A DNA stretch of 64,000 nt from positions 4,419 to 68,418 of the forward strand of contig CAYUUR010000004.1 of the NCBI GenBank assembly GCA_964448075.1, in the 5' to 3' direction. How positions within the stretch are numbered: the stretch's first letter is position 1; the number at the start of each line of letters is the position of its first letter. The notes beneath the pieces are model-generated. The model was not told where the DNA came from. It saw only the letters and a list, made by a program, of their open reading frames with translations, and searched no databases. This document shows positions 10,390 to 29,363 of the stretch, in pieces. Both the position numbers and the translations under genes were made by a program. The stretch comes from an uncultured Candidatus Saccharibacteria bacterium (lineage in GTDB: Bacteria > Patescibacteriota > Saccharimonadia > Saccharimonadales > CAYUUR01).

Positions 10390-10391
10390 GC

Positions 10392-15023: not shown

Positions 15024-16679
15024 CTATGCAGGTGGAGGAGCAGTCACAATCTTGCGCGATTCTTTTTTGACCTGCTTACCCTGGTCGTCAACTTCATAAA
15101 CAAGTATTTCTCCAAACGGCATTTCTAGTTTGGCGACATCAGCATCGGAAATACCTTCAATGTATTTCATCAGGGCACGGATGGCGTTTCCGTGCGATAC
15201 AACCAGTACGTTCTGACCATCAAGCACTTTTGGCAGAATTTTTTCCGTATAGAACGGCACGGCACGGGCATAGACGTCTTTGAGCGATTCGCCGTTTGGC
15301 ACAGGGAAGTTCCATTCACGCCGGATGCGGTTAAATGTCTCTTCGCCGATGCTGTCGCGCATTTCCCACTTATTCTTGCCCGTATAATCGCCATAGTCAC
15401 GTTCGTTAATTGCATCACTGCGTTCAAATTGAACGTCAAATTGTTGCGAAGAATCGAGGATGCCCTCTAATGTTTCGAGCGCTCGAATCTGCTGGGATGT
15501 GAAAGCATAATCTATTGGCACATCAACAAGTTGCTGACCCAGCAAGGCAGCCTCGCGGAAGCCTTTTTCGCTCAAGTGCACATCCGTACTGCCAGTCCAC
15601 TTGCCGAGCGCGTTCCATTCTGATTCGCCATGACGAGTGATGAGCAGCTTGCCTGTTTTTTTGGTAGGAGGTTTGACCATATTGGTTGGTTTGCCTTCCA
15701 AAAAGCTGACGATGTTTTGAGCGGTCGTTTGGTTGATACGTTGGATTGCTTCGTAGGTGTTGTAGGCTATGTGTGGAGTAATGATGACATTGGGCATCTT
15801 TTTGAGTGCACTGATTTCTACACTCATCTCGAGCATACTTGTTGGTAGTTTTTCACGACGGAGCAAGAGCAGCTCTTCTTCAACGCTGAGTAGTTTTTCA
15901 CCTTCTATCACGTCAAGTCCAAGACCGCCGATTTGACCATTTTGTTTTGCCTCAAGCAGTGCTTTGGTATCAATAAGTTCACCACGGGCAGTGTTGATTA
16001 GCACTGCTCCGCGTTGCATTTTGCTGAGAGTCTCGGCGTTGATCAAGTGGTGATTTTCTGGAGTGTAGGGAATATGCAAAGACAAAACGTGACACTTCTT
16101 AATAGCCGTTTCAAAATCTACATATTCAAAGCCGATTTCCTTGGCGACCTCATCTTTTGGAAAGGGGTCGTAACCAATCACTTCCATGCCAAAGCCTCGA
16201 GCGATGCGCGCCATGTACTGGCCGATATGGCCACAGCCAAGAATCGCTAGGGTTTTGCCTTTGAGGTCATGGCCAGTGAGGGTGGGTGCATTGATGCTTC
16301 CAGACTTGACCGCTTCTAGTGTGCCGGGGATCTGCCTGGTTAAAGATAACAAAAGTGCAAAGGCATATTCAGCAACGGTGTTTTCGCCATAGGTCGGCAC
16401 ATTCACAACGACGATATTTTGAGCAGACACGGCGTTAAAGTCGATGTTGTTGTAGCCAGTCGAACGGCAAGCTATCAGACGGAGTTTGGGCATTTTGGCA
16501 ATTATTTCGGCCGTCACATCACTAGTTACAAATACGGATATAATCTCGGCTTCTGGGTCGGCATTCTCGGCGTTTATTGATTCGCCTACAAACCTATAAT
16601 CTTTCTGGACTTCATTTAATCCGTCTGTTAGATGAGACGTGTCTGTTTGGGTTGCATCATAAAAGACTATACTGGACAT
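15024..16679 (-). CDS. fusion protein: D-lactate-type D-2-hydroxyacid dehydrogenase (N) + 2,3-bisphosphoglycerate-dependent phosphoglycerate mutase (C)
   Basis: 551 aa. Residues 1-~340 carry GKTLAILGCGHIGQ (NAD fold), INTARGELID, LGLDVIEGE and ITPHIAYNT. Residues ~350-551 carry LLITRHGESEWN and VVSHGNAIRAL (histidine-phosphatase dPGM). Domain junction is near 15650. Confidence 0.9.
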   Translation of the reverse strand: MSSIVFYDATQTDTSHLTDGLNEVQKDYRFVGESINAENADPEAEIISVFVTSDVTAEIIAKMPKLRLIACRSTGYNNIDFNAVSAQNIVVVNVPTYGENTVAEYAFALLLSLTRQIPGTLEAVKSGSINAPTLTGHDLKGKTLAILGCGHIGQYMARIARGFGMEVIGYDPFPKDEVAKEIGFEYVDFETAIKKCHVLSLHIPYTPENHHLINAETLSKMQRGAVLINTARGELIDTKALLEAKQNGQIGGLGLDVIEGEKLLSVEEELLLLRREKLPTSMLEMSVEISALKKMPNVIITPHIAYNTYEAIQRINQTTAQNIVSFLEGKPTNMVKPPTKKTGKLLITRHGESEWNALGKWTGSTDVHLSEKGFREAALLGQQLVDVPIDYAFTSQQIRALETLEGILDSSQQFDVQFERSDAINERDYGDYTGKNKWEMRDSIGEETFNRIRREWNFPVPNGESLKDVYARAVPFYTEKILPKVLDGQNVLVVSHGNAIRALMKYIEGISDADVAKLEMPFGEILVYEVDDQGKQVKKESRKIVTAPPPA

Positions 16680-16710: not shown

Positions 16711-17970
16711 ATGAAAATACATAAACTATTTGCTCGCCAGATATATGACTCACGTGGCTATCCGACAGTTGAGGCTGAGCTGTATTTAGACGATGGTTCA
16801 TTTGGTCGGGCCTCAGTACCATCTGGGGCGTCAACAGGCACTCATGAAGCTTTAGAATTACGAGATGGAACCAAAGATTATGACGGTAAGGGTGTGGAAA
16901 AAGCTGTGCGAAATATAAATGTTACGATTACGCACGCCCTACTCAAAAAATCATTCGACTCACAACAGCAGCTAGACAAGGCATTAATTGCGCTGGATGG
17001 CACAGATAATAAATCCAAACTTGGTGCCAATGCAATACTGGCGGTTTCTTTGGCGTTCGCTAAGGCTATGGCGGCTTCTGCTCAGCAGCCATTATTTCGA
17101 TACGTTCAGTCTATAGCTGGAGTCCAACAAGTTACTATGCCAGTCCCATATGTGAATGTTTTAAATGGCGGCAAGCATGCTGTAGGCGGCTTGAGCGTCC
17201 AAGAATGCATGATAGTGCCGCATGGCGCCAAGAACATGAACGACTCATTGAAGATGGCCAGTGAAGTATTCCATTCGTTAGGCAAAATTCTATCAGATGC
17301 CAAGCAACCGACGACGGTTGGTGACGAGGGTGGATACGCCCCGAGTTTGCAAAAAGAAGAGGACGGATTAGATCTTCTAGTGAAGGCAATTACTCACGCC
17401 GGCTATCAGCCCGGTAAACAGGTTAGTATCGCTATGGATGTTGCGGCGAGTGAACTGCTGGTCGATGGCAAATACGTATTTGGCAAAAGGCACTACACGA
17501 CTGACGAGCTAATCGCGTGGTATCAGAAACTGACTGAGGATTATCCGATAGTGTCGATAGAAGACGGGCTGAGCGAAGATGACTGGCTGGGTTGGGCCCA
17601 GCTGACAGCTCAGTGTGGCGGCAAGACACAGTTGGTTGGTGATGATTTGTTTGTCACTAATTCCCATCGTTTGCGAGAAGGCATAGACAAGCACGTTGCC
17701 AATAGTATATTGATAAAGCCAAACCAGATCGGTACGTTAACAGAAACAGTCGAGACGGTGCTGTTGGCCAAAGCGAACGGCTACCGAGCTATGGTTTCGC
17801 ATCGCTCTGGCGAGACAGAGGACACTAGCATTGCGCACATTGCCGTCGGGTTGGGTGTGGGTCAGATAAAGACAGGATCGTTTTCGCGCACAGAAAGGCT
17901 CTGTAAGTACAACGAACTACTCAGAATCGCCGAGCTCGTCCCGCATGTCCAATTTGGCAACGGCTTATAA
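16711..17970 (+). CDS. eno: enolase (phosphopyruvate hydratase)
   Basis: 419 aa with ARQIYDSRGYPTVEAE, SVPSGASTGTHEALELRDG, LVGDDLFVTN, IKPNQIGTLTET and SHRSGETEDT. Confidence 0.97.
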   Translation: MKIHKLFARQIYDSRGYPTVEAELYLDDGSFGRASVPSGASTGTHEALELRDGTKDYDGKGVEKAVRNINVTITHALLKKSFDSQQQLDKALIALDGTDNKSKLGANAILAVSLAFAKAMAASAQQPLFRYVQSIAGVQQVTMPVPYVNVLNGGKHAVGGLSVQECMIVPHGAKNMNDSLKMASEVFHSLGKILSDAKQPTTVGDEGGYAPSLQKEEDGLDLLVKAITHAGYQPGKQVSIAMDVAASELLVDGKYVFGKRHYTTDELIAWYQKLTEDYPIVSIEDGLSEDDWLGWAQLTAQCGGKTQLVGDDLFVTNSHRLREGIDKHVANSILIKPNQIGTLTETVETVLLAKANGYRAMVSHRSGETEDTSIAHIAVGLGVGQIKTGSFSRTERLCKYNELLRIAELVPHVQFGNGL

Positions 17971-18008: not shown

Positions 18009-18899
18009 ATGAAGACAAAGATTGTTGTTGATGAAAACCATGTAAAGCGCATTCGTTCTGAGCTCGTAAAAGTTGGCATGACTAGCTATGGACTGTTGAA
18101 GAGTGAAACCCGTCATTTGCCAGAGCATATTCATGAGGATGAACATATCGGCGGAGTTGTCTACGGGCGTTATGAGCGCGGTTCCGGTATGATTGTGGCA
18201 ACCGACAAACGCATATTATTCCTTGACTATAAGCTGTTCTTCCAATCAACAGATGAGATTAAATATGAAGTGGTGAGCGGCGTAAGTGTTAATAAACAAG
18301 ACGGTACAGCTGGCGTGGTGCTACATACGCGACTCGGTGATTATAAACTGCGTTTTGTGAATCTAAAGTGTGCCAATCATTTTTTGCACTATATTCAAGG
18401 TAAGGCAGTTGAAATGGAAGAGGCCGAATCGGTTACTGCTCCTGCAGAAGTTCCTGCGGCTAGACAACGCAACACCACACAAGAACTATCAGCGGCAGCC
18501 CGCGTTTTCTTAGGCTCACATGAACTAGCCACGCTTTCGACTATTGACCATGAAGGTAACGTGCATGGCGCAGTAGTCTACTATACTGCAGACAAAAATA
18601 GTAACGTCTTTATTGTCACCAAAGAGCAGACTAACAAAGCTCACAATATTGAAGCTTTTCACCAAGTAGCCTTAACTATGTACGACCTGTCTACTATGCA
18701 GACACTACAGATCAGTGGCATCGCCCACGAAGAAGAGGATGCCAAGATACGACAAATGGTACAAGAAAAAATCCTCCGTCCTCGATTCAAAGACGGGAAG
18801 GGAGAGTTGCCTCCAATCTTACATATCCCAGCAGGCAAGTACGTTGTGTTTTGTATTAAGCCACTCACCTACACGTTCAACGACTACAAAAACGACTAA
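18009..18899 (+). CDS. two-domain protein: bacterial PH-like domain + pyridoxamine-5'-phosphate-oxidase-like split barrel
   Basis: 296 aa. The N-half (GGVVYGRYERGSGMIVATDKRILFLDY) resembles YokE-type bPH domains. The C-half (ATLSTIDHEGNVHGAVVYYTADKNSNVFIVTKEQTNK) resembles the PNPOx/general stress protein 26 fold. Confidence 0.55.
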   Translation: MKTKIVVDENHVKRIRSELVKVGMTSYGLLKSETRHLPEHIHEDEHIGGVVYGRYERGSGMIVATDKRILFLDYKLFFQSTDEIKYEVVSGVSVNKQDGTAGVVLHTRLGDYKLRFVNLKCANHFLHYIQGKAVEMEEAESVTAPAEVPAARQRNTTQELSAAARVFLGSHELATLSTIDHEGNVHGAVVYYTADKNSNVFIVTKEQTNKAHNIEAFHQVALTMYDLSTMQTLQISGIAHEEEDAKIRQMVQEKILRPRFKDGKGELPPILHIPAGKYVVFCIKPLTYTFNDYKND

Positions 18900-18939
18900 A
18901 TTTTGAACTTCTAGCCGCTTAAATGGTAGGCTAGGGGCA

Positions 18940-20352
18940 ATGACGGGTGCACGGTCATATTACAGAACTACTTTGTTAAGTACGGCATGCGTTAGTGTGC
19001 TGGCTGGGCTTTGGCTGGCACGCACCGACACCGCGCTAGTCATATATTTTTTGGCATGCATTGGCGTTGCTGGGTTATATCCGAGAACGCGCTATCTTGC
19101 TGTGGCGGCTATCTGCGGATTGCTGCTTGGTTATGTTCGGGGAGTGCAGTACGAGCCGCGACTCGCGATGTATGAATCGTTGCGTGGTCAGGTCGTCATG
19201 TTCCGTGGTACGGCAATAGAAGACAGTATATATGGCAAGGATGGTCAGCTGACGTTTGACACAACTGACATAACAGCAAACAATTCGCTACGATTGTCTG
19301 GTAAGATCCAGGTGGCTGGGCGAGGTGCGCAAATGGTCTACAAGGGGGATCGCATTACAGCAACGGGCAAGCTGTATCCAACCCGAGGTTCACGTCAGGC
19401 ACGGGTGAGTTATGCAACGATAAAGGTTGAATCTCGCTCCAATGCACTGGTAGATAAGATGCGACGTAACTATATGAGTGGCATGTTGTCTGCGCTACCC
19501 GAGCCGCATGCCTCATTTGGCATGGGGTTGTTGATCGGACAGCGTGACACCTTGCCTAAAGACGTTGCGGATGACTTGTCAGCAGTAGGTCTCACCCATC
19601 TTATTGCGGTCAGCGGGTATAACCTGACGATTATTATCATGTTTGCGCGTCGGGCTTTGGGGCGACGTTCAAAATATCAGACTGCAGTTGGTGCGGTTAT
19701 TCTGATGGTCTTGTTTCTGCTTATCACTGGTTTTAGTGCGTCTATTGTTCGTGCTGCGTTGGTGAGTGGTATGAGTTTGTTTGCTTGGTACTTTGGTCGT
19801 ACCTTCAAGCCGTTCCTGCTCATTATGAGTGCTGCGGCTATTACGGCGCTTTGGCATCCGTTTTTTGTTTGGACAGACATTGGCTGGTATTTGTCGTTTC
19901 TCGCTTTCTTTGGAGTGTTAGTGGTTGCGCCTTTAATTTTGCCGCCACCTTCGGGTAATAAACAACCAAATATGGTGAAGAGTGTGGCAGTAGAGAGTTT
20001 TTCTGCGCAGATAATGACGATCCCAATTATCATGTATATCTTTGGGCGTTTTTCTCCGGTGTCCCCGCTCGCTAATCTCCTGGTCGTGCCGCTCGTTCCC
20101 TATGCCATGCTCTCTGCGCTTGCAGCTGGTATTGCTGGCAGCATTGCCCCGGCCATAGCAGGTGTTTTTGCTTGGCCGGCTAAGGTTGTTCTCTCGTATA
20201 TGCTGAGCGTCGTTTCGTTAACGAGTGACTTACCTTTTGCAAGTAAGGAAGTTAAAATTCAGATGAATGTTATGTTGGTGGTTTACGTAGTCATAGTACT
20301 GCTTGTGCTGGTTAAGCAACACCGTCGCAGCCGCGATGATATGTTACAATAA
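18940..20352 (+). CDS. comEC: DNA internalisation competence protein ComEC/Rec2 (no beta-lactamase domain)
   Basis: 470 aa. N-terminal TM plus OB-like segment, then a polytopic competence domain with the LTHLIAVSGYNLTII motif. Ends right after the membrane domain. Confidence 0.85.
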   Translation: MTGARSYYRTTLLSTACVSVLAGLWLARTDTALVIYFLACIGVAGLYPRTRYLAVAAICGLLLGYVRGVQYEPRLAMYESLRGQVVMFRGTAIEDSIYGKDGQLTFDTTDITANNSLRLSGKIQVAGRGAQMVYKGDRITATGKLYPTRGSRQARVSYATIKVESRSNALVDKMRRNYMSGMLSALPEPHASFGMGLLIGQRDTLPKDVADDLSAVGLTHLIAVSGYNLTIIIMFARRALGRRSKYQTAVGAVILMVLFLLITGFSASIVRAALVSGMSLFAWYFGRTFKPFLLIMSAAAITALWHPFFVWTDIGWYLSFLAFFGVLVVAPLILPPPSGNKQPNMVKSVAVESFSAQIMTIPIIMYIFGRFSPVSPLANLLVVPLVPYAMLSALAAGIAGSIAPAIAGVFAWPAKVVLSYMLSVVSLTSDLPFASKEVKIQMNVMLVVYVVIVLLVLVKQHRRSRDDMLQ

Positions 20353-20383
20353 CAGATGAAATAGCAGGAAATGGAGGCTTATC

Positions 20384-21112
20384 ATGTCTGGACACTCCAA
20401 GTGGTCGACGATCAAACGACAAAAAGGTGCCAAGGATGCGGCACGTGGTGCGATATTTACCAAGCTTGGTAATGCGATTGCGTTGGCGGCGCGCGGTGGA
20501 GCAGACCCTGAAATGAACTTTAGTCTCCGGCTGGCAATTGATAAAGCCAAGGCTGCCAACATGCCGATGGCAAATATCCAGCGTTCTATTGACCGTGGCT
20601 CCGGCAAGCTGGGTGGTGAGCAGATACAAGAAGTTTTGTATGAAGGCTACGGTCCTGGCGGCGCGGCTATAATCGTGGAGTGTGCTACGGATAATGTTAA
20701 CCGCACGTATCCAGAAGTGAGATTGGCATTCAGTAAGCATGGCGGCAATATTGCCGAAAAAGGTGCGGTGGCTTTCCAGTTTGATCAAAAGGGTTCAATC
20801 CGCATTCCGAAAAAGGGTGATGAGGCAATGATGGCTGCACTTGATGCTGGCGGCGAGGATGTTATAGAAGACGAAGACGGATCGGTAATCTTGACCAATC
20901 CCAAACAGCTGGCGCAAGTTCGTGAAGCACTTAAGGAAAACGGACATGAAGTTACTGAAGCCGAGTTGGTTTTTGTCCCAAACAATACGGTGACAATTGA
21001 AGATGAAGCGACCGCAGGAAAGCTCATTCGTTTACTGGAAGCCCTTGAAGATAACGAGGACGTCAGTAATACCTATACGAATGTTGCTTCTTTCCCTGAT
21101 AGTAGCAGTTAG
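20384..21112 (+). CDS. yebC: YebC/PmpR family DNA-binding regulator
   Basis: 242 aa, MSGHSKWSTIKRQKGAKDAARGAIFTKL..., full-length family match. Confidence 0.95.
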   Translation: MSGHSKWSTIKRQKGAKDAARGAIFTKLGNAIALAARGGADPEMNFSLRLAIDKAKAANMPMANIQRSIDRGSGKLGGEQIQEVLYEGYGPGGAAIIVECATDNVNRTYPEVRLAFSKHGGNIAEKGAVAFQFDQKGSIRIPKKGDEAMMAALDAGGEDVIEDEDGSVILTNPKQLAQVREALKENGHEVTEAELVFVPNNTVTIEDEATAGKLIRLLEALEDNEDVSNTYTNVASFPDSSS

Positions 21113-21158
21113 CATAATCAATTTGACGTAATGAGTAGGCAGTAGTACCATATGGGTC

Positions 21159-22733
21159 ATGAAAACGGGTGCAATCTTTTTCATTACGTTGTTTGCGGTT
21201 ATATTTGTAGTCCCTCTGCGAGTGCATGCGCAGGGTTCGTCTGTGGTAATTTCACAATTGCAGACCGGTGGAGCAGTCACGGGCACTGCGAGTCATGAGT
21301 ATGTGGAATTCACAAATAATACGAATGCAGACATTGACATTACAGACTGGTGTTTGACCTACTCTAGCGCGTCGTCGACAGGTAGTGGTAGTGATCTAGC
21401 ATGTTTTGCCACACCAAACGTTTCACAGAGGCTTTATCTTGCTTCATTTGGATCGGTGCGCTTGGCGAGTAATGAGTTCTTGGCCGCCAATCCTTCCATT
21501 ACGGTAGATGCAACTTTTCGTGGTTCGGTGAGTGGAACCGGAGGACACGTTCATATTGTAGACTCCAGCCGGAGTATTGTTGATACGCTCGGATGGGGTA
21601 CTGCATTGTACGCAGAAGGTCAGGCCGTTGTTGCACCATCTGGCGGTCAGGTTTTGCAACGCAAGGTTAGTGCAGGTGTATATCAAGACAGCCAAGATAA
21701 CTCAACGGATTTTGTCCAGGCAAGTCTGGTAGTAACACCGGATACAGGATTGTATGAAGCCGTCGATGCGTGTATAAACCAAGACATATTTCCCGGCTTG
21801 CAAACGACGATTCCCGAAGGATTCGAGGTTGATCAATTTGGCGTCTGTCAAGAAATACCGCAACCCCCAGAATGCAAGGGCGTGATATTGTCGGAGATTG
21901 TTCCGAATCCGGCAGGAAATGACGTCGGCAATGAGTATATCGAACTCTTTAACCCAACGGGCGAGACCGTTCAGATGGAGGCCTGTCAATTGATGGTTGA
22001 TGAAGCAGTATACGCCTTTACGGAATCGATAGCTCCTTATGGGTATGCCTTAGTAACCGATATGAGCCTACCAAATAGTTCCGGAGCAACGGTGCGCTTC
22101 ATGACGACTGACGCGGAGGAGCTGGTTACGTATCCTGCTAATATGGCCGATGATGAAGCTTGGGCAGTCATATCTGGCTCTTGGCAGATAACAAACAAAA
22201 AAACACCAGCTCAAACCAACGAACCTTCCACTATTAAAATCGTGCCTGCAAGCGCAACACGTTCACTCGGTCCGTGTCCGGTCGGAAAGATTAGGAATCC
22301 ACAAACGAACCGGTGCCGCTCATTAAAGGGCGGAGGCTCTACACAACAGCCATGCGCGGCTGATCAAATACGAAATCCACAAACTAACCGTTGTCGTAAA
22401 GTTGCGAGTACTGTTGGTGTGCTCACTCCGTGTAGTCCTGGACAACAGCGGAATCCTGAAACTAATCGCTGCCGTAAGGTTACTACCGCAACAAACTTGC
22501 TCAAGCCCTGTGACGAAGGCGAAGAAAGGAATCCGGAGACAAACCGTTGTCGAAAAATTGCAGGTGTGGCCGGCGTGGCATCAACAGCACAAGCAGACAC
22601 TACCCAAATTAGGCAGAACTACCGAGTGGTCATGCTAGCACTCTTGCTTGCTATTAGCTATGGCGTTTATGAATACCGCCAAGAACTTAAAAATGGTGTA
22701 TCCAGGGTGATTGGTAAAGTCTTGCGAAGGTGA
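21159..22733 (+). CDS. membrane-anchored extracellular protein with two lamin-tail domains and four Cys/Arg-rich repeats
   Basis: 524 aa. Signal peptide (..LRVHA/QG), LTD 1 (VVISQLQTGG...HEYVEFTNNTNADIDITDW), LTD 2 (VILSEIVPNPAGNDVGNEYIELFNPTGETVQM), four C-x4-[IQE]RNP[QE]TNRCR repeats, and a C-terminal TM helix with a basic tail. Confidence 0.8.
   Translation: MKTGAIFFITLFAVIFVVPLRVHAQGSSVVISQLQTGGAVTGTASHEYVEFTNNTNADIDITDWCLTYSSASSTGSGSDLACFATPNVSQRLYLASFGSVRLASNEFLAANPSITVDATFRGSVSGTGGHVHIVDSSRSIVDTLGWGTALYAEGQAVVAPSGGQVLQRKVSAGVYQDSQDNSTDFVQASLVVTPDTGLYEAVDACINQDIFPGLQTTIPEGFEVDQFGVCQEIPQPPECKGVILSEIVPNPAGNDVGNEYIELFNPTGETVQMEACQLMVDEAVYAFTESIAPYGYALVTDMSLPNSSGATVRFMTTDAEELVTYPANMADDEAWAVISGSWQITNKKTPAQTNEPSTIKIVPASATRSLGPCPVGKIRNPQTNRCRSLKGGGSTQQPCAADQIRNPQTNRCRKVASTVGVLTPCSPGQQRNPETNRCRKVTTATNLLKPCDEGEERNPETNRCRKIAGVAGVASTAQADTTQIRQNYRVVMLALLLAISYGVYEYRQELKNGVSRVIGKVLRR
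22275..22556 (+). repeat. four tandem 78-bp (26-aa) coding repeats
   Basis: The first Cys codons fall at 22275, 22353, 22431 and 22509 (exact 78-bp spacing). Each unit is C....RNP.TNRCR plus a 10-aa linker. Confidence 0.85.
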
Positions 22734-22769
22734 TGCGTTGCTGGTGCAGAAAGCGTATGATAGTGGGAT

Positions 22770-23249
22770 ATGAGAATACTCGGCATAGATCCCGGTACAG
22801 GTATTTTAGGTTTTGGCATTATTGATACTTTGGCAAACGGCAAGACACGGCTTGTGGATGGTGGCGTGATTAGAACACCAGTAAAACAAGCCGACAGCGA
22901 CCGGCTAGAAACCATCTATAATGAGCTTCACGAACTAATCATCGAGCACGAGCCAACGGTAATGGCGGTTGAGAAGCTGTTTTTTTCACAAAATGTTACG
23001 ACGGCCATGAGTGTTAGCCAGGCGCGCGGCGTCGTGCTTTTATGCGGTAAGCAACATAAGCTCGAGTTGTTTGAATATACGCCGCAGCAAATTAAACAAG
23101 CGCTTACTGGTTATGGACGAGCCGACAAAAAACAAATTCAAGAAATGGTCCGGATTGTACTCTCGCTGCCAGAAATACCCCAGCCAGATGATGCCGCTGA
23201 TGCGCTTGCTGCGGCAATTTGTCACAGCATGAATCAGCGCCCAGCCTAG
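22770..23249 (+). CDS. ruvC: crossover junction endodeoxyribonuclease RuvC
   Basis: 159 aa with MRILGIDPGTGILGFGII, AVEKLFF and DAADALAAAICH. Confidence 0.95.
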   Translation: MRILGIDPGTGILGFGIIDTLANGKTRLVDGGVIRTPVKQADSDRLETIYNELHELIIEHEPTVMAVEKLFFSQNVTTAMSVSQARGVVLLCGKQHKLELFEYTPQQIKQALTGYGRADKKQIQEMVRIVLSLPEIPQPDDAADALAAAICHSMNQRPA

Positions 23250-23295
23250 TTTTGTACGGTGTTGGAAGGTGCCGCTTATGGTATAGTTAAAGGAA

Positions 23296-23721
23296 ATGAA
23301 ACGTGGGTTAACTACAAACCAAGACGGCTTTTCAATCATTGAATTAATGACGACGCTGGCGATATTGTCTTGGGTGATGCTGACAATCATAACGTTCATG
23401 ATTCAGATAGATGGAATCCTTGATAAGACAGAAAGAAGATTGACGGCAATAACGACCTTGTACGAGAAGTACCAAGAATACGAAACAAAGTCATTCACCT
23501 CCCTTACACAAGGAACAGCACTCAATAACTATGAGGTTGAAGATTTTGTAGATGAAATGCCAGCTGATTTGCGCGAGCCTCGTAGTGCAAAAGTTTACAT
23601 TCGTGACGTAACGCCCACATTGAAAAAACTTGACGTGCGGATTAGCTATAAGGAAACTAAAGATAAAGTTCGTACAATCAATATCTCTACCGGTATCCAA
23701 GAGAGCGGAGTAGGCCGATGA
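23296..23721 (+). CDS. type IV pilin-like protein (minor pilin)
   Basis: 141 aa. Prepilin leader and N-methylation motif (NQDG/FSIIELMTTLAIL) with Glu at +5. Confidence 0.8.
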   Translation: MKRGLTTNQDGFSIIELMTTLAILSWVMLTIITFMIQIDGILDKTERRLTAITTLYEKYQEYETKSFTSLTQGTALNNYEVEDFVDEMPADLREPRSAKVYIRDVTPTLKKLDVRISYKETKDKVRTINISTGIQESGVGR

Positions 23722-24431
23722 GAATTCGCAGTAACCAGACTGGCTTCACACTTGTTGAGATGCTCGTAGTTGTACCAATTACCCTCATTGTCTGCGTAGT
23801 CTTGCTATCTATTTTAGTGTCAAAAAACGGCGAGCTATATGAACGCAACGCAAGAGTTAGTTTGCGTATGGAAGGCTTAAATCTATTGGATAAACTACAA
23901 GACGAACTGACCTTTTCAAATAAGTTCAACGCAACATTGATCAGTGATCTTGATGACCCTAATGAGCCTAGTGGCGGATGGGATTATGATTCAACACCAA
24001 GTAATACATTAATAATCAGTCTGCCAGCAATTGATAAGCCTAGAAGCGATCCGTCGCGGCAGTTCGTCTACTATACGACAGGGCCAAATAACGGCGACAT
24101 CGCGATCAATAATATCATCTACTATGTTACAGACACTAACCTTTACCGCAGGGTTATTACGCCAGACACAACTGATGTTTCACCTGCTAATTTCTATAAA
24201 CAGACATGTCCGCCTGGTGATGCTACGCCAAGTTGTCAGGATGACTTAGAGATGTCCTCGAAAGTTGAATCATTAAACGTAACTTACTTTGACGAAAATA
24301 ATGTCGCAGTACAGAATAACCCCAACCTTGCAGATAAGATTAAAGTTACGCTCAATCTGACGGATATGGCAAACGGAAACGTTATTGATGAGACGGTCAG
24401 TATAACAGTAAAGAAATACAATGATTTCTAA
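23718..24431 (+). CDS. type IV pilin-like protein (minor pilin)
   Basis: 237 aa, SNQTG/FTLVEMLVVVPI prepilin motif. Start overlaps the upstream stop (ATGA). Confidence 0.8.
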   Translation: MRIRSNQTGFTLVEMLVVVPITLIVCVVLLSILVSKNGELYERNARVSLRMEGLNLLDKLQDELTFSNKFNATLISDLDDPNEPSGGWDYDSTPSNTLIISLPAIDKPRSDPSRQFVYYTTGPNNGDIAINNIIYYVTDTNLYRRVITPDTTDVSPANFYKQTCPPGDATPSCQDDLEMSSKVESLNVTYFDENNVAVQNNPNLADKIKVTLNLTDMANGNVIDETVSITVKKYNDF

Positions 24432-26277
24432 TAACAAAAACACCAGTACAAAGGGTTTTGTGATGCCGATGGTGCTGATAATGATGAGCACATTGATGAT
24501 TGTGGCAATTCTGATCAATCAAGCTATCGTTGTCAATCAAAGACAGATTACTCGTTATGGCTATGTGCTCATAGCACGTGCAGCAGCTAAAGCAGCAGTC
24601 GATTACGCCAAAGAAGAACTCGACAGTAACATTGCTTATTGTGGCACAGCCGAGAATCGCAATAGTCCGACCGACGATCAAGACTCAACTGTTCTTTACA
24701 ATGATGCAGATTATCAGGTGACGTACCAAGTAGAAATTTACGACAATATATGTAGCGGAACAGGCCGTAATATACGCGCGATCGGTAGAGTGTACATTCC
24801 GGATATTTCTTTGAATGTAGCTTACGTACAGGATATTCGTGTTCGCTTAGTACGAAGCGGTTTGTACACTGAGTCGCCGGATGATTTTTCTCCTGTGGCG
24901 TGGTATCGTTCGGACGTAGCAGCTTCGGTACGTCAGTCATCGGTAAGCGCCTTTGATGATAGCTTTAATGTTGACACAAAACACGAAGAGCAAACAAACG
25001 GCACTACACAAAACGCTGTCTGTGCGGCGAGTAATAATGACCTTGAGTTTCATACCGGCAATGAAAATGTCGGCGAACAAAACATAGGCGTCACATTTGA
25101 CAATGTATCTATTCCTCGTAATGCGACTATCACCAACGCGTATATCCAGTTTAGATCACGTGGCATTAATGGTACGGGCGGAACGAGTGCTCAATTAAGC
25201 CAACCGATAACTACGAGGATTCGTGCTTTTGACACCGCCAATAAAGCTGATTTTACGTGCCCAGGCAATAACCAGTTAAGTTCAACAAGCGGACTTACAT
25301 CAGGTCAAGTCGATTGGGCAATACCGGCATGGAGTACACAGAATCAGAGTGGGGCAGCACAACAAACACCAAGCCTTACTACGATGGTGCAGACTATTGT
25401 CAATCGTTCCGATTGGAATAGCGGCAACAATATGGGATTTCGCTTTCAGAAAGTAAGTGGCTCGGGACTCCGCAGCGCCTCATTCACTAGCCAGAACCAC
25501 ACACGGCTGTATGTCGAATGGACAACTGGTGGCTCTACAACGCAGGCGACCAATGGCTCAACAGTGACGCAATGGGTCGACCAGACAAGTAACGGCAATA
25601 ACCTTGATCTTGTTAACGGTAGTCCGGTACTTCGGACGGGCGTCCTTAACGGAAGGCAGGTTATTGAGTTTGTAGCGACTGGTGATGACCCAGATGTGCT
25701 TGCTAATACCGCGTTGATCCCGACGATCACTAACACGCAAGGCATGACTGCTATTGCTGTTATGCGTCCTATCAGTAGCGGCTCATCAACTGGTAATGAT
25801 CGGTATATTGGCTTGTTGAGTAACTCACAAACAGACGACACGACTGCACCCGCAGCAAGTGGCAACGTTCGTGCCTTTATGAGGAGTGCATTGTCTACGA
25901 GTCTAACCGCAGAGGCAAATGGTTATACCGCGCAAGCGCTGAGCAACGCGATTGGTAACAACTTCTCGTCAGGGTCTTGGGGCGTGTACGCATTCACGAT
26001 ATCAAATACAACAAATGAACGTTACTCTCGTAACGGTGCACCGAGCAATCTTTTTGCTGGTGGTAGCAACACGAGCTTCTCCTTGAACAAGCTGTTACTC
26101 GGTGGCACTACCAATGGTTCAGGAGCATACGTATTACCTGGAGATATGCAGATTGCAGAACTGGTTCTCTACGATAAGCCACTGTCATGTAGCCAAATTC
26201 GGTTAATCGAAAACTATTATGGACAGAACACGAGCTGGAATGTTGATAGTACAAACTATAACTGTCCGTTACAATAA
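24421..26277 (+). CDS. large pilus-associated protein: PilX-like hydrophobic N-terminus + LamG-like C-terminal lectin fold
   Basis: 618 aa. N-terminus KGFVMPMVLIMMSTLMIVAIL has no Glu+5, as in PilX. The C-terminus (WGVYAFTIS...LLLGG....GAYVLPGDMQIAELVLYDKPLS) follows the Laminin_G_3 pattern. Overlaps the upstream gene by 11 bp. Confidence 0.7.
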   Translation: MISNNKNTSTKGFVMPMVLIMMSTLMIVAILINQAIVVNQRQITRYGYVLIARAAAKAAVDYAKEELDSNIAYCGTAENRNSPTDDQDSTVLYNDADYQVTYQVEIYDNICSGTGRNIRAIGRVYIPDISLNVAYVQDIRVRLVRSGLYTESPDDFSPVAWYRSDVAASVRQSSVSAFDDSFNVDTKHEEQTNGTTQNAVCAASNNDLEFHTGNENVGEQNIGVTFDNVSIPRNATITNAYIQFRSRGINGTGGTSAQLSQPITTRIRAFDTANKADFTCPGNNQLSSTSGLTSGQVDWAIPAWSTQNQSGAAQQTPSLTTMVQTIVNRSDWNSGNNMGFRFQKVSGSGLRSASFTSQNHTRLYVEWTTGGSTTQATNGSTVTQWVDQTSNGNNLDLVNGSPVLRTGVLNGRQVIEFVATGDDPDVLANTALIPTITNTQGMTAIAVMRPISSGSSTGNDRYIGLLSNSQTDDTTAPAASGNVRAFMRSALSTSLTAEANGYTAQALSNAIGNNFSSGSWGVYAFTISNTTNERYSRNGAPSNLFAGGSNTSFSLNKLLLGGTTNGSGAYVLPGDMQIAELVLYDKPLSCSQIRLIENYYGQNTSWNVDSTNYNCPLQ

Positions 26278-26281
26278 CCAT

Positions 26282-26839
26282 ATGCATAAACACATACGTA
26301 TAATACGACAACGCGGTTTTACGCTTATCGAGATACTTATTGTTATGGCAATAATGGGCACGCTGGCAGTTGGCTACACCTACCTTTCAAGCCGAAACGG
26401 ACGCGACCGTGCATATCTGGTCCGTGCTGAATCTGAGGTTGTTACATTGGCGAATGCGGTTAAACTAAAGGTACAAGAAACAAATGAATACCCAGCAGAT
26501 GTTAATCGTGGTCTCCCACCGGGAATAGAAGAATACATTTCCACGCCAAATGAGGTCTGGCCAGATGCGCCCTGGCCAGACACGGTCTATGACTATGAAA
26601 ACTGGGACGGAGGCGACACAATTCAGATAAGCGTTCGTTTTTGTAGCCCTGGCGACAATGCGACCTGCAAGGCTAACGCACAAAAGTATCTAAAGAACGT
26701 GGTAGATGATAATGTGCTGGCTAACTGGGATGCTAACAGTTCGGTATATTTCTGTATCAAAGAAGGTAGTTGTCGCTCTCATTCGACCCGACCTGCCTCT
26801 CATCCGGGTTATCGCATACAGATTAGCAGCGCACGCTAA
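26282..26839 (+). CDS. type IV pilin-like protein
   Basis: 185 aa from ATG 26282 (the listed ORF start 26219 lies inside the upstream gene). RQRG/FTLIEILIVMAIMG prepilin motif. Confidence 0.8.
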   Translation: MHKHIRIIRQRGFTLIEILIVMAIMGTLAVGYTYLSSRNGRDRAYLVRAESEVVTLANAVKLKVQETNEYPADVNRGLPPGIEEYISTPNEVWPDAPWPDTVYDYENWDGGDTIQISVRFCSPGDNATCKANAQKYLKNVVDDNVLANWDANSSVYFCIKEGSCRSHSTRPASHPGYRIQISSAR

Positions 26840-26869
26840 CATTATCAGACTGATGGTATACTAAGGCGG

Positions 26870-27454
26870 ATGATTGTTACATTAGAGGGAATTGTATCCG
26901 AAAAACTTACAGACGTGGTGGTATTGAATGTCAATGGCGTCGGCTATGGACTGCTTGTTCCGCATGAGACACAAGCATCACTTCGTCAGTCAGAAACGGC
27001 CAAGCTATTTATTTACGAACATATACGTGAAACTGCGCATGACCTCTTTGGTTTTCAATCCTTTCAAGACAAGCAATTTTTTGAGCTTCTACTGAGCGTT
27101 ACAGGCGTCGGGCCAAAGATGGCGTTGAGTATTATGAATATTGGTAGTGTCGCAAGTGTACGTGCAGCCATAGCTGCCGGAGAGGTCAAGATCATTCAGC
27201 AGGCGAGTGGCGTTGGCAAACGGGTTGCCGAACGAATCGTTGTTGACTTGAAAGATAAGGTCGGTCTGGAGGGTGTTGATCTTGCGGCTACGGGTCTGCT
27301 ATACGGTGACGCAATCGCAAATCAAGATGACGCTGCGCAAGGTTTGATAGCTCTGGGCTATTCGCCACAAGACGCAATAGCCGCGCTGAATGATATTGAC
27401 ACCTCTCTACCAACAGAAGAGCGCATACGTATGGCACTGAAAGAACGGCGATAA
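26870..27454 (+). CDS. ruvA: Holliday junction DNA helicase subunit RuvA
   Basis: 194 aa with MIVTLEG.. OB domain, helix-hairpin-helix GVGPKMAL / [10 protein letters not shown], and C-terminal domain III. Confidence 0.95.
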
Positions 27455-27455
27455 T

Positions 27456-28481
27456 ATGGCTATCGAAAGAATACTGGCTACACAATCAACAGAAGACCCG
27501 GTTGAAGTAGAGCTAGAAATTACCTTGCGTCCCAAGGATTTTGCTAACTATATTGGGCAAGAACGCCTTAAGCAGAACCTACAGCTTGCAATTACTGCTG
27601 CCCAGCAGCGTGGCGAGCCACTTGACCATATACTTTTGTATGGACCACCGGGGCTTGGCAAGACAACACTTGCAAATGTTATTGCGCACGAAATGTCAGC
27701 TAATATTCGCATCACGTCGGGTCCGGCAATTGAGCGGGCAGGCGATCTTGCAAGTCTACTCACTAACCTACAAGACGGTGACATATTATTTATTGATGAA
27801 ATTCATCGCCTGCATCGTTCAGTCGAGGAAGTTTTATATAGTGCGATGGAAGACTACAAGCTGGACATTATGCTCGGCAAGGGCCCGAGCGCGCGAAGTC
27901 TGCGGCTTGATCTACCGCGCTTCACTATTATTGGTGCTACTACGCGAACTGGCGCACTTGCTGCACCACTACGAGATAGATTCGGCATGCTGCATCGACT
28001 AGACTTTTATGCACCAGATGAGATTCGTCAGATCATCGAACGAGCAGCATCGATCCTGAAGATCAAGATTGATACGCAGGCGGCTGAAGCGTTGGCGGAG
28101 CGGTCGCGCCTGACGCCACGTATCGCCAATCGTTTGCTTAAGCGTGTGAGAGACTACGCTGATGTGAACGGTGACGGAATTATCGATACTCATATTCAAA
28201 AGCAAGCTATGGAACTCTTGCAGATTGATGAGCTAGGCCTTGATCCGGGTGATCGTATGCTGCTCGAAGCGATCATTACACACTACAACGGTGGCCCCGT
28301 GGGCGTAGAGACTATTGCTGCAATCACAGCAGAAGAGCGTAGTACCATCGAAGATTTCTATGAGCCATACCTAATGCAGATGGGGCTATTAGAACGAACT
28401 CCGCGTGGCCGTAAGACAACGCCTCGTGCGAATAAACATATTGCCGCAAAAAAGCATAAAGACGACAATAAATTGCTATAA
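27456..28481 (+). CDS. ruvB: Holliday junction DNA helicase RuvB
   Basis: 341 aa with [12 protein letters not shown], Walker [10 protein letters not shown], Walker [11 protein letters not shown], and sensor [16 protein letters not shown]. Confidence 0.97.
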
Positions 28482-28490
28482 TACCAGTAC

Positions 28491-29072
28491 ATGCAACCAA
28501 ATCAATTATCCGGGAATGGGAAAAAACTGTTTGAGCTTATTGAGTTTGATGACCAAGAGCAGCTGTTGTACGAGGTAAGAAAGCATCCATTCGGTCTATT
28601 TGTTATTTACTTAACGGGTGTATTAATCGGAGTCTTGTTGTTTTCAATTTTTGCTGTGGCAGGTTTTGCTTTCGAGGGCGACCCTTTGAACTTAGGTATA
28701 GAACTATCAAACTATAAAGGTATATTTTTGCTGATTGGCCTTTTACTAGCCGTTCTAACGGCAGTTGTAGCTGGAATTGCGGGCTATTTGTACAAGAGTA
28801 ACGTAATTTTAGTAACCAACGACAAAATCGCCCAAGTGCTTTACAGGACACTGTTTGATAGAAAAATCTCACAGCTAAGCATTGGTGACGTACAAGATGT
28901 GACGGTAACGCAAAAGGGCGTGATCGCTCGCTCCTTTAACTTTGGTACCATTGTCGTTGAGACAGCAGGCGAGCAGCAAAACTACACTTTCACCTATGTG
29001 CCAGATCCTTATCAAGCAAGTAAGACCATCATCATGGCGCATGAGATTAATCTCAAACAATACGGCAACTAA
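28491..29072 (+). CDS. membrane protein with bacterial PH domain (YdbS/YdbT-like)
   Basis: 193 aa. Two TM helices after KHPFGLFVIY, then a bPH_2-like domain. Its stop codon abuts the stop of the convergent gene (29070-29075). Confidence 0.65.
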   Translation: MQPNQLSGNGKKLFELIEFDDQEQLLYEVRKHPFGLFVIYLTGVLIGVLLFSIFAVAGFAFEGDPLNLGIELSNYKGIFLLIGLLLAVLTAVVAGIAGYLYKSNVILVTNDKIAQVLYRTLFDRKISQLSIGDVQDVTVTQKGVIARSFNFGTIVVETAGEQQNYTFTYVPDPYQASKTIIMAHEINLKQYGN

Positions 29073-29363
29073 CTATTCGCTGAATGGATTATTGCGCGCG
29101 CGTTCAAATAGTGCACGGACTTCAACGTTCTGATCCTCTAGGTCTTTGATCTTTTGTATTGATTCTTCATCAATTGTCAGACGTTTAATGGCCTGTTCAC
29201 TGACTTGCGAGCTTGGCTCACGTTGTGTGTATGCGCCAATACGGGTGATTAAAAACCCATAGCAGCCGACAAGGCCAGCAATAAATAGAATCACGCGGTA
29301 ACGATAGAGAGCTTGTGAAAGCTTGTGTAGAGAATTGTGAATTCCTTGTGTGTTCATCTTCAT
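29073..29363 (-). CDS. hypothetical bitopic protein, last gene of the pilus machinery operon
   Basis: 96 aa, one TM helix (VILFIAGLVGCYGFLI). Its ATG overlaps the upstream stop by 4 bp. Confidence 0.5.
   Translation of the reverse strand: MKMNTQGIHNSLHKLSQALYRYRVILFIAGLVGCYGFLITRIGAYTQREPSSQVSEQAIKRLTIDEESIQKIKDLEDQNVEVRALFERARNNPFSE

Follow-up and report, generated by a model that had tools for sequence, protein, structure and literature searches.

A lamin-tail-domain membrane protein encoded beside comEC in Saccharibacteria, a candidate envelope partner of the DNA-uptake channel

Introduction

A large part of bacterial diversity belongs to the CPR/Patescibacteria, whose genetics can currently be approached through natural transformation only. 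In most of these bacteria, ComEC lacks the nuclease domain and ComEA is not recognisable. Méheust and colleagues reported that just 31% of CPR genomes have the ComEA KO, and they suggested an alternative mechanism of DNA binding (PMC6744442). Candidatus Southlakia epibionticum ML1 is naturally transformable via comEC (PMC10633639).

Lamin tail domains (LTDs) recur in extracellular enzymes that act on nucleic acids, as in ExeM, Hvo_1477, the haloarchaeal MBL-LTD proteins, and the DNA-degradation loci of Izemoplasma. In some members of the DNase I family, an LTD stands in place of a duplicate helix-hairpin-helix (HhH) domain. The LTD of ExeM is dispensable for degradation of extracellular DNA (eDNA) in vivo. 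The original prediction for the protein described here had stated that LTDs occur in extracellular nucleases and also in some ComEC proteins. The first part agrees with the literature, in which LTDs are fused to metallo-beta-lactamases or nucleases. For the second part, ComEC-LTD fusions were not found in a published survey of ComEC domains (PMC6299819).

Here we describe a protein with two LTDs that is encoded near comEC in the window (the whole 64,000-nt stretch of saccharibacterial DNA that we analysed). Literature searches with locus tags, or for LTDs together with Patescibacteria, found no paper that discusses this family.

Results and discussion

Architecture of the protein

The gene encodes 524 amino acids (Table 1), and a database entry (P0001) is 100% identical. 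A signal peptide, two LTDs, four repeats, and a C-terminal transmembrane (TM) anchor had been predicted, and hydropathy, Pfam, and the AF2 model agree with all of these. Kyte-Doolittle (KD) hydropathy is 2.4 across residues 4-22, and an AxA-type motif suggests the cleavage site of the predicted signal peptide. At the other end, a hydrophobic 17-mer (residues 490-506) has a KD value of 1.72, and the AF2 helix spans residues 488-523. The end of the TM helix carries a conserved juxtamembrane motif, GYxxYE(W/Y)RxE; in the alignment of homologues, Y501 and R507 are invariant and E505 is present in at least 90% of members. By the positive-inside rule, the topology would be N-out/C-in. Together, the signal peptide, the C-terminal TM helix, and the basic tail suggest a type I membrane protein.

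Table 1. Coordinates of the LTD protein, its parts, and the neighbouring genes. Nucleotide positions are those of the window.
Feature	Residues (aa)	Position (nt)	Strand	Basis
comEC (Competence + DUF4131)		18940..20352	+	Pfam, NCBIfam, synteny
yebC, 46-nt gap to LTD gene		20384..21112	+	Pfam
CDS of LTD / Cys-hairpin membrane protein, stop codon counted	1-524	21159..22733	+	ORF list, translation
Predicted signal peptide (hydrophobic core aa 4-22, then VHA/QG)	1-25	21159..21233	+	Hydropathy, AF2 helix 2-17
LTD 1, Ig-like, net charge -8	26-190	21234..21728	+	Pfam, AF2, Foldseek
Cys-containing beta linker, net charge -8	191-240	21729..21878	+	Alignment, AF2
LTD 2, net charge -13	241-350	21879..22208	+	Pfam, AF2, alignment
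Cys-hairpin repeat 1, CPVGKIRNPQTNRCR	373-387	22275..22319	+	AF2 beta-hairpin 377-379/386-388
Cys-hairpin repeat 2, CAADQIRNPQTNRCR	399-413	22353..22397	+	Translation, alignment, AF2
Cys-hairpin repeat 3, CSPGQQRNPETNRCR	425-439	22431..22475	+	Translation, AF2; weak TNFR_nem PF25314 match at 425-441
Cys-hairpin repeat 4, CDEGEERNPETNRCR	451-465	22509..22553	+	Translation, alignment, AF2
TM helix	488-506	22620..22676	+	KD, AF2 helix 488-505, invariant residues
Short basic cytoplasmic tail, net charge about +5	507-524	22677..22730	+	Charge, AF2 helix 507-523
ruvC, 36 nt downstream of LTD gene		22770..23249	+	Pfam

The HMM search that had been proposed for the LTD (PF00932) gave a match well above the cutoff (E = 2.8e-18; 66.7 bits vs. 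34.3) in two stretches of the protein, and all 69 of the 69 aligned homologues match this family as well. The AF2 model (pLDDT 84.3) contains two Ig-like sandwiches. The best Foldseek matches in the PDB are the Ig folds of lamin A/C and lamin B: the top entries (1ifr, 3jt0, and 2lll) have a probability of 1.00 and target-normalised TM-scores of 0.61-0.73, with 0.73 for 1ifr. LTD 1 contains the best Pfam stretch (25-147) and AF2 strands from 29 to 188 with pLDDT above 90, and it matches the lamin A/C Ig fold. LTD 2 contains the second Pfam stretch, has AF2 strands from 243 to 345, and includes the invariant residues E246, E262, N265, and Y325. The linker between them has the motif DxCxNxxxxxxLQxxxPxGxxxDxxGxC, in which D203, C205, and P219 are near-invariant (alignment A1), and confident AF2 strands at 198-232. 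The two LTDs and the linker have a net charge of about -29 and a pI of 4.05. Across 84 family members, the head is always acidic (-12 to -73, median -30 to -34), which is unfavourable for DNA binding.

Beyond the LTDs, Pfam reported just a sub-threshold TNFR-like match, so no DNA-binding domain was recognised. No NCBIfam family matched, neither Pfam nor NCBIfam identified a catalytic domain (nuclease or phosphoesterase), and a PDB sequence search with a profile of the 69 homologues gave no matches at E ≤ 1. Like this protein, ExeM/NucH, Hvo_1477, the haloarchaeal MBL-LTD protein "ComA", and the LTD-containing DNase I proteins are secreted or membrane-associated and are found in a context of nucleic-acid uptake or degradation, and ExeM shares its signal peptide and its hydrophobic region at the C-terminus. 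Unlike those nucleases, the window protein lacks any catalytic domain and combines two LTDs with a family-specific stalk of Cys-hairpins; where there is a nuclease near the LTD gene, it is encoded by a separate gene.

The family is large and is found across the Saccharibacteria. Searching with the whole protein identified at least 2397 homologues. Searching with the repeat module alone identified 1303 clusters at 50% identity (955 at E ≤ 1e-10), and the top 150 clusters all share the same layout.

The Cys-hairpin repeats

The four C-x5-RNPxTNRCR hairpin repeats are spaced by exactly 26 amino acids (78 nt), as had been noted from the DNA; they begin at nt 22275, 22353, 22431, and 22509. The cysteine, arginine, and threonine positions are invariant among the 69 homologues (in repeat 1, these are C373, R379, T383, R385, and C386), and RNPxTNRC does not occur elsewhere in a six-frame translation of the window. 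The AF2 model has one disulfide per 26-residue unit, with disordered linkers between the units. Of the ectodomain, the repeat stalk is the only basic part, with a charge that is mild across the family (median +3 to +5). The repeat units are just 47-60% identical to each other as DNA, and Tandem Repeats Finder found no tandem repeat in 21100-22800, which implies that the repeats are old and have been maintained at the protein level. On these grounds, we rejected a recent origin by duplication or slippage.

TNF-receptor-like modules (PF25314; "TNF receptor-like" in ECOD) are likewise small, disulfide-braced beta-hairpins in tandem. PF25314 (TNFR_nem) matches 54 of the 69 homologues at E ≤ 1 (best E-value 1.3e-7), and some homologues have a precomputed PF25314 annotation. 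In the window protein, the full sequence scored 13.2 bits and the isolated repeat region 23.2 bits (E = 6.9e-5), both below the gathering cutoff of 27, and just half of the profile is matched (positions 18-34 of 34). For the S. epibionticum protein, DPAM classifies the repeats as TNF receptor-like with a probability of 0.941.

The repeats had instead been likened to the viral 2-cysteine adaptor (PF08793), which would imply a role in DNA condensation or as an adaptor, as in P64 of ascoviruses. The resemblance is at the level of a pattern, C...NPxT[GN]RC, and P64, which has four of these motifs (vs2C-ad), does bind DNA (PMC6163548). However, the same paper credits this binding mainly to the Arg-rich stretches of P64 and gives no known function for vs2C-ad (PMC6163548). 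PF08793 had no match to the window protein or to the isolated repeat region at E ≤ 10, nor to any of the 69 family members at E ≤ 1, although HMMER's filters may drop very weak matches; as described above, TNFR_nem does match most of the family, and DPAM places the repeats of the orthologue in the TNF-receptor-like fold. The context differs as well: 2-cysteine adaptors belong to proteins of NCLDVs, where their fusion partners are OTU peptidases, kinases, or basic repeats (PMC6163548), while the LTD family is found in MAGs of Saccharibacteria, and a scan of a collection of viral contigs found no relatives. Homology to PF08793 is thus largely refuted at the level of sequence profiles, and we consider it very improbable.

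Linkage to comEC

The ComEC of the window was described as lacking the beta-lactamase nuclease domain and as separated from the LTD gene by yebC only. Indeed, Pfam finds the Competence and DUF4131 domains but no Lactamase_B (metallo-beta-lactamase) domain, and yebC is the sole intervening gene. Linkage to comEC in relatives had been set beforehand as a test, and it is strong: of 58 informative loci, 50 have comEC upstream within 5 kb and in the same orientation. At 31 of these 50 loci, yebC intervenes; at the other 19, comEC and the LTD gene are directly adjacent, with neither yebC nor ruvC nearby. When we clustered flanking ORFs without bias towards any family, ComEC was the commonest neighbour (52 of 86 loci) and was always upstream on the same strand. 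In a relative whose protein is 35% identical, independent gene calls with precomputed Pfam annotations give the same gene order.

The median gaps are 50 nt from comEC to yebC, 46 nt from yebC to the LTD gene (47 loci), and 52 nt from comEC to the LTD gene if directly adjacent, which is operon-like. With a median gap of 16 nt to the LTD gene (43 loci), ruvC is probably co-transcribed with it. A scan of 18800-23400 for promoters and terminators gave counts that were not clearly above those from shuffled sequences, and we treat it as uninformative; it placed the end of a promoter-like site 8 nt ahead of the ATG of the LTD gene and no terminator-like site in the intergenic gaps that flank the gene.

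Some of this linkage could reflect shared ancestry. Many Saccharibacteria keep the gene order over about 35 kb (dnaK, rimK, comEC, recAX, and T4P genes), so much of the synteny of the yebC-type loci could be inherited rather than selected. Also, in at least one clade (loci L066, L067, L075, and L076), yebC, the LTD gene, and ruvC are together without comEC within 10 kb. However, the linkage of comEC and the LTD gene persists through rearrangements that removed yebC and ruvC, and it is conserved while the genes upstream of comEC in the window (enolase and bPH-PNPOx) are not. Among uncharacterised envelope proteins, the LTD family alone accompanies comEC across the Saccharibacteria.

The 19 directly adjacent loci contain an array of a membrane-anchored His-Me nuclease, ComEC, and the LTD protein. 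The nuclease belongs to GmrSD_C (PF07510, E = 4.7e-21) and carries a hydrophobic anchor at its N-terminus as well as the conserved motif VQIDHVVALSDAWQKG. Its gene is upstream of comEC at all 17 of the 17 directly adjacent loci with enough sequence, and it is adjacent to or overlaps comEC at 15 of them. None of these loci retains yebC, ruvCAB, or the remainder of the island; their outer flanks vary, and a rough tree separates them into at least three groups. Neither the window nor any of the yebC-type loci contains the nuclease gene.

Comparison with ComEA

No ComEA had been seen in the window. We relaxed a regular expression for the HhH motif until it recovered RuvA as a positive control, and no other ORF in the window had a ComEA-type HhH, so this observation stands. 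A genome-wide search for comEA had been proposed, and we ran it on a relative: the annotation tables for the complete genome of S. epibionticum contain no ComEA, K02237, or PF12836, and HhH domains are found in cytoplasmic enzymes only. Pfam found no HhH family (PF12836 and related) in the LTD protein or its 69 homologues, and NCBIfam gave no match for the LTD protein.

The LTD protein resembles ComEA in that it is predicted to be extracytoplasmic and tethered to the membrane, in that its gene is beside comEC, as in comEA-comEC operons, and in that it is found in a transformable lineage without an annotated ComEA. It differs from ComEA in lacking the HhH domain, in being anchored at the opposite end (C-terminal, after a cleaved signal peptide, instead of N-terminal), and in having a mostly acidic ectodomain. 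Also, the phenotype of its orthologue in Tn-seq data is unlike that of comEC, as discussed below.

Possible functions

The original prediction was that this protein is the surface DNA receptor of the competence system. The linkage to comEC and the lack of an annotated ComEA in S. epibionticum favour this idea, while the acidic head, the failed analogy to the 2-cysteine adaptor, the Tn-seq data, and the findings on T4P-2 count against it. A role in DNA binding is a plausible hypothesis. In our view, this uncharacterised protein is most likely a partner of ComEC in the envelope, and it may well serve the DNA-uptake apparatus as an accessory part, working alongside the nuclease-less ComEC channel on the outer side of the membrane. 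The family's layout is an acidic head of two LTDs, a stalk of three to five basic beta-hairpins that are braced by disulfides (PCxxGQxRNPETNRCR, about 26 amino acids apart), the TM helix, and the basic tail. The TM helix and the membrane-proximal repeats would position the protein beside ComEC; the invariant arginines, asparagines, and threonines of the hairpins might contact incoming nucleic acid or a conserved partner in the envelope; and the acidic, faster-evolving head might project through or above the wall.

A somewhat unlikely, but serious, alternative is that the LTD protein is needed at the surface or in the envelope for epibiotic growth (for host attachment, organisation of the envelope, or wall anchoring) and has no role in DNA uptake, and that its proximity to comEC reflects general conservation of gene order, such as the 35 kb of synteny described above. 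One line of evidence is from SEML1_0775 of S. epibionticum ("lamin tail domain-containing protein"), which is a putative orthologue based on synteny and architecture in published tables rather than on a sequence alignment. Both loci have the order comEC, yebC, LTD gene, ruvC, and both proteins have two LTDs and a TNFR-like repeat region, but SEML1_0775 is longer (630 amino acids, with an N-terminal extension), and there ruvC is followed by a PBP gene and ruvA instead of by pilin genes and ruvA as in the window. The published tables flag SEML1_0775 as a Patescibacteria-enriched core family; of 116 such enriched genes, Wang and colleagues found 73 to be essential, with envelope proteins frequent among them. 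In the published Tn-seq data, which measure growth rather than transformation, SEML1_0775 was not essential at T0 but was essential at T1 and T2 (NE/ES/ES), with 450.7, 104.2, and 12.9 normalised reads at 30, 6, and 1 insertion sites. In contrast, the com genes were all called NE, and comEC, comFC, and dprA were each NE/NE/NE. If the effect is genuine, then SEML1_0775 has a function beyond ComEC-dependent transformation. However, the transposon bears a tuf terminator, so the effect may be polar: downstream on the same strand, ruvC starts after 5 nt and the gene for a class A PBP, which is essential, follows 43 nt further, and both show a similar depletion at T0. Furthermore, T4P-2, whose genes are in this island, functions in binding to the host, and TM7x does not need these genes for competence, which implies that being in the island does not by itself predict a role in competence. 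The membrane-adjacent tandem repeats might also resemble stalks that span or bind the wall.

The fast evolution of the acidic head would fit with a surface role as well. Relative to the window, the LTD protein of L001 is 77% identical (90-99% for the neighbours) and that of L002 is 47% identical (80-85% for the neighbours), and its dN is 0.144 vs. 0.006-0.05 for the neighbours. However, its whole-gene dN/dS relative to L001 is about 0.10, with dS near saturation, and is equal to that of ComEC, so positive selection as the cause of this divergence is unsupported. Also, the 19 loci, in at least three groups, at which comEC, the LTD gene, and the nuclease gene stay together without the island count against general conservation of gene order as the explanation, as do enolase and bPH-PNPOx, which are not conserved beside the pair. 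If the protein does act in epibiotic growth, it would be a conserved and possibly essential surface component of the epibiont, one that appears in the tables of the published Tn-seq study and is not discussed there.

The LTD protein might instead be a surface scaffold that holds eDNA, RNA, or a secreted nuclease for nucleotide salvage, independently of ComEC-mediated transformation. LTDs are repeatedly joined to extracellular nucleases and other proteins of eDNA metabolism, the directly adjacent loci have a membrane-anchored His-Me nuclease in the same operon, and Saccharibacteria do not synthesize nucleotides de novo and do not need the com genes for growth. Such a role would explain how the LTD protein could be essential while ComEC is dispensable. 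Nevertheless, we view it as improbable: the protein has no nuclease domain of its own, the yebC-type loci (including the window) lack the nuclease gene, the head is acidic, the clustering of flanking ORFs found no linked nucleoside transporter, and even in ExeM, eDNA is degraded in vivo without the LTD.

As a probable partner of ComEC, the LTD protein is a testable candidate for the DNA-capture component that the Saccharibacteria appear to lack. The question can be addressed directly, as S. epibionticum has both an orthologue and transformation assays and the island has been described in TM7x. The operon of the GmrSD_C nuclease, the nuclease-less ComEC, and the LTD protein fits with a module for DNA import. 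In one large set of lineages, this operon appears to fill the role proposed here for the LTD protein and ComEC, and its products would correspond to EndA, ComEC, and ComEA of Gram-positive bacteria. More speculatively, and we would not yet wager on it, Saccharibacteria and perhaps other CPR without ComEA might import DNA by an undescribed three-part module, in which the GmrSD_C nuclease would replace the beta-lactamase domain of ComEC, the nuclease-less ComEC would be the channel, and the LTD protein would be a non-homologous analogue of ComEA that binds DNA via its Arg/Asn/Thr hairpins.

Architecture of the LTD protein

The gene between yebC and ruvC (the LTD gene) encodes a 524-amino-acid protein. 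The original prediction described a signal peptide, two lamin-tail domains (LTDs), four repeats at 78-nt spacing, and a C-terminal transmembrane anchor, and all of these are present (see the table). An AlphaFold2 model, with 69 homologues as input (mean pLDDT 84.3), has two confident Ig-like sandwiches, then four beta-hairpins (pLDDT 56-81) with disordered linkers between them, and finally a long C-terminal helix. Its top PDB matches by Foldseek are the Ig folds of lamin A/C and lamin B. We will call the two LTDs and their linker the head (pI 4.05) and the repeat region the stalk (pI 10.0).

Features of the LTD protein and of the genes discussed (window coordinates unless a relative's locus is named)
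Feature	Position	Strand	Remarks
RimK / ATP-grasp cluster	8106-11896; L087 3177-5503		upstream of the comEC island
551-aa fusion ORF	15024-16679	-	adjoins the enolase gene
Enolase gene	16711-17970
bPH_3 gene	18009-18899		directly upstream of comEC
DNA-uptake, recombination and pilus island	18940-37709
comEC	18940-20352	+	Competence and DUF4131 domains only; island start
yebC			follows comEC
LTD gene	21159-22733	+	follows yebC
Signal peptide	aa 4-22		N-terminal hydrophobic segment, then VHA|QG
Two lamin-tail domains			PF00932, E = 2.8e-18, two stretches
Beta linker with Cys			between the two LTDs
Four C-x5-RNPxTNRCR repeats	start at aa 373, 399, 425, 451		spacing exactly 26 aa (78 nt)
Hydrophobic helix	22620-22676 (aa 488-506)		after the repeats
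Juxtamembrane motif region	22620-22700 (aa 488-514)
Basic tail			C-terminal to the helix
ruvC			follows the LTD gene
Four pilin-like genes	23296-26839		between ruvC and ruvA
ruvA, ruvB, bPH_2 membrane protein			in this order
Two unknown ORFs, pilM, pilin gene, pilC, pilB		-	in this order, after the bPH_2 gene
recA, recX			end of island, after pilB
Three acidic ORFs	49775-54283 and 59374-63057
LexA-type gene	L005 7298-7726
GmrSD_C nuclease gene	L005 7761-8486		upstream of nuclease-less comEC

The four repeats are not a chance pattern: a six-frame translation of the window contains no other RNPxTNRC-type motif, the units are just 47-60% identical to each other as DNA, and their Cys, Arg, and Thr are invariant in the 69 homologues. 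They are the best-conserved region of the protein, and Tandem Repeats Finder reported no tandem repeat in 21100-22800. The proposed likeness to the 2-cysteine adaptor motif found no support, as PF08793 has no match in the protein or in the isolated repeat region (E ≤ 10) and matches 0 of 69 family members (E ≤ 1). The nearest Pfam model is TNF-receptor-like (PF25314): 54 of the 69 members match it, with a best E of 1.3e-7, though the score of the window protein itself falls short of the gathering cutoff. DPAM also gave a TNF-receptor-like fold to the repeats of the orthologue from Ca. Southlakia epibionticum (Wang et al. 2023, PMC10633639). Searches of NCBIfam with the LTD protein, and of PDB sequences with a profile of the 69 homologues (E ≤ 1), found no match.

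A large family

Database searches with the full-length sequence yield at least 2397 relatives (E ≤ 1e-3). The best 120 are nearly all full-length and LTD-annotated, and they carry the label Saccharibacteria wherever they are named. The LTD gene is annotated as "lamin tail domain-containing protein" and nothing more, and our literature search found no paper on the family, on the Cys-hairpin stalk, on the association with comEC, or on the operon of nuclease, comEC, and LTD genes described below. With the repeat module alone as query, there are matches to 1303 representative clusters (50% identity) at E ≤ 1e-3, of which 955 pass E ≤ 1e-10; in the 150 best of the 1303, the module occupies a corresponding place in the protein. 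The number of repeats per member is between two and five, most often four, and their commonest spacing is 26 amino acids. All 84 members considered have a strongly acidic head, with a median net charge of -30 to -34 and no value above -12. Their repeat blocks are neutral to basic, with a median of +3 to +5 and extremes of -1 and +17. At the end of the transmembrane helix, the motif GYxxYE(W/Y)RxE is kept family-wide, with Y501 and R507 invariant. Such conservation is unusual for a simple anchor and points to a specific contact within the membrane or at its surface, or else to an unrecognised sorting signal; none of NCBIfam's C-terminal sorting models matches the protein.

Linkage to comEC

Relatives of the LTD gene were gathered from 86 loci, of which six come from genomes and 80 from metagenomes, and all their flanking ORFs within 6 kb entered an unbiased clustering. 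The commonest neighbour is ComEC (52 loci), always upstream and on the same strand, followed by RuvC (49), YebC (46), RuvA (40), RuvB (38), a bPH membrane protein (32), RecA (27), and RecX (23). The association with comEC extends to relatives: comEC is at most 5 kb away in 50 of the 58 loci with sufficient upstream sequence. Of the other eight, which lack a nearby comEC, four or five group as a single clade in which yebC-LTD-ruvC is retained.

There are two arrangements. In 31 loci, the order is that of the window, comEC-yebC-LTD-ruvC(-ruvA-ruvB), and a relative with 35% identity has the same order according to independent gene calls and precomputed Pfam matches. In 19 loci, comEC directly adjoins the LTD gene, and yebC and ruvC are not nearby. 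Median gaps are operon-like (52 nt from comEC to LTD, 46 nt from yebC to LTD, and 16 nt from LTD to ruvC). A rough neighbour-joining tree of LTD proteins splits the directly adjacent loci into at least three groups that are interleaved with the yebC type; its deep nodes are unreliable, so it gives no firm figure for how many rearrangements were independent.

Many Saccharibacteria share their gene order across tens of kilobases, so the yebC-type arrangement alone is weak functional evidence. For example, dnaK, the rimK cluster, comEC, recAX, and the type IV pilus (T4P) genes come in the same order in the window and in the 35%-identical relative, and the RimK / ATP-grasp cluster lies upstream of the comEC island in the window and in the distant relative L087 alike. 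The two informative observations are that the adjacency and co-orientation of comEC and the LTD gene outlast the loss of the rest of the island, and that a nuclease gene joins them there.

This gene, which encodes a GmrSD_C nuclease (PF07510, His-Me finger), precedes comEC in 17 of 17 directly adjacent loci with sufficient sequence (L005 as well as L003, L006, L009, L012, L018, L032, L034, L037, L038, L041, L047, L049, L061, L063, L065, and L080); neither the window nor the yebC-type loci have it. It usually adjoins or overlaps comEC (median gap 0 nt). The protein, which is membrane-anchored or secreted, has an N-terminal hydrophobic anchor and a conserved VQIDHVVALSDAWQKG motif. A nuclease gene beside a ComEC without the beta-lactamase domain would make functional sense, and we consider it a candidate functional replacement for that domain or for EndA. 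A LexA-like HTH gene often precedes it; in L005, L003, L006, L009, L012, and L034 its product is small, has a LexA-type DNA-binding domain and no peptidase domain, and could regulate the nuclease-comEC-LTD operon.

The window's island matches two of the T4P loci reported for TM7x, locus two, which includes recAX, and locus three, which has five pilins (PMC11623550). Its four pilin-like genes have N_methyl motifs, and one encodes 618 amino acids without a Pfam domain. This insertion is found only in the window's closest relatives (L001 and L002); elsewhere ruvC is mostly followed directly by ruvA. The 296-amino-acid protein encoded upstream of comEC has bPH_3 and pyridoxamine-5'-phosphate-oxidase-like domains, and its gene is conserved there in close relatives only.

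Genetic data from Ca. Southlakia epibionticum

Ca. Southlakia epibionticum is naturally transformable, and deleting comEC abolishes transformation and not growth (Wang et al. 2023, PMC10633639). The gene order is as in the window: comEC (SEML1_0777), yebC (0776), the LTD gene (0775), and ruvC (0774). The tables of that study mark SEML1_0775 as a Patescibacteria-enriched core family and give it two LTDs and a TNFR-like region; the text does not discuss it. Tn-seq calls at T0, T1, and T2 (NE, not essential; GD, growth defect; ES, essential) were NE/ES/ES for SEML1_0775: from 53 input sites, 30, 6, and 1 remained, with normalised reads of 450.7, 104.2, and 12.9. The genes comEC, comFC, and dprA were unaffected (NE/NE/NE). 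At face value, then, the LTD protein does something that ComEC does not.

A polar effect is a live alternative because the transposon is an hph cassette with the tuf promoter and terminator, because the same strand carries ruvC from 5 nt downstream and, 43 nt further on, an essential class A PBP gene, and because the T0 depletion of both resembles that of SEML1_0775. That insertions in yebC are tolerated shows only that there is a promoter downstream of them.

The annotation tables for this transformable relative contain no ComEA, K02237, or PF12836 (PMC10633639), and helix-hairpin-helix (HhH) matches are limited to RpoA, DnaE, LigA, UvrC, and MutY. Méheust et al. (2019, PMC6744442) found the ComEA KO in just 31% of CPR genomes and suggested another mechanism of DNA binding; according to the same study, CPR have essentially no ComEC/beta-lactamase fusion.

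Possible functions

The best-supported reading, which we offer tentatively, is that the LTD protein serves the nuclease-less ComEC as an accessory, anchored in the membrane on its extracytoplasmic side. The transmembrane helix and the membrane-proximal repeats would lie beside ComEC, the invariant Arg/Asn/Thr hairpins might contact DNA or a conserved partner, and the acidic head would project outward. It is possible that the protein is a non-homologous stand-in for a known competence component; the mechanism originally proposed, a surface DNA receptor, is partly contradicted. The LTDs themselves are unlikely to be a DNA-binding surface because the head is acidic. Should the LTD protein bind DNA at all, the candidate region would be the stalk.

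Prokaryotic LTDs occur with membrane-associated hydrolases, and membrane targeting was proposed (Mans et al. 2004, as described in papers that cite it). The LTD of ExeM is dispensable for eDNA degradation in vivo and adds to activity in vitro. In halophile DNase I enzymes, an LTD takes the place of the duplicate HhH domain of other such enzymes, and an analogous DNA-binding role was proposed. LTDs are also found in Hvo_1477, haloarchaeal MBL-LTD proteins, and Izemoplasma DNA-degradation loci. The association with extracellular nucleic-acid handling is recurrent, and any activity of the domain itself is putative.

In the main rival reading, the protein belongs to the envelope or to host interaction, is required for epibiotic growth, and has no part in DNA uptake. 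We think this somewhat unlikely. The Tn-seq call for SEML1_0775 favours it, as does the precedent of the T4P-2 genes of the same island, which act in host binding and which competence in TM7x does not require (PMC11623550). The LTD protein also diverges faster than its neighbours (dN of 0.144 versus 0.006-0.05), but its dN/dS of about 0.10 is the same as for ComEC. A scaffold for scavenging nucleic acids would reconcile essentiality with the DNA context; we consider this improbable. With these findings, an established genetic system can be used directly to ask what substitutes for ComEA and for the nuclease domain of ComEC in CPR bacteria.

Other genes in the window

At the protein level, the enolase is just 76% identical to its counterpart in L001, and its synonymous differences are saturated; for most of the genes around it, identity is 90-99%, and dS is 0.4-0.6 for several. 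Across the region, dS differs widely between genes, which suggests a recombination mosaic. By its domains, the adjoining 551-amino-acid ORF is a D-2-hydroxyacid dehydrogenase (2-Hacid_dh and NAD-binding domains) fused to a phosphoglycerate-mutase-type histidine phosphatase. Finally, three large and very acidic ORFs (pI about 4.05), one with a right-handed beta-helix and two (648 and 1227 amino acids) without a Pfam domain, probably encode further surface proteins.
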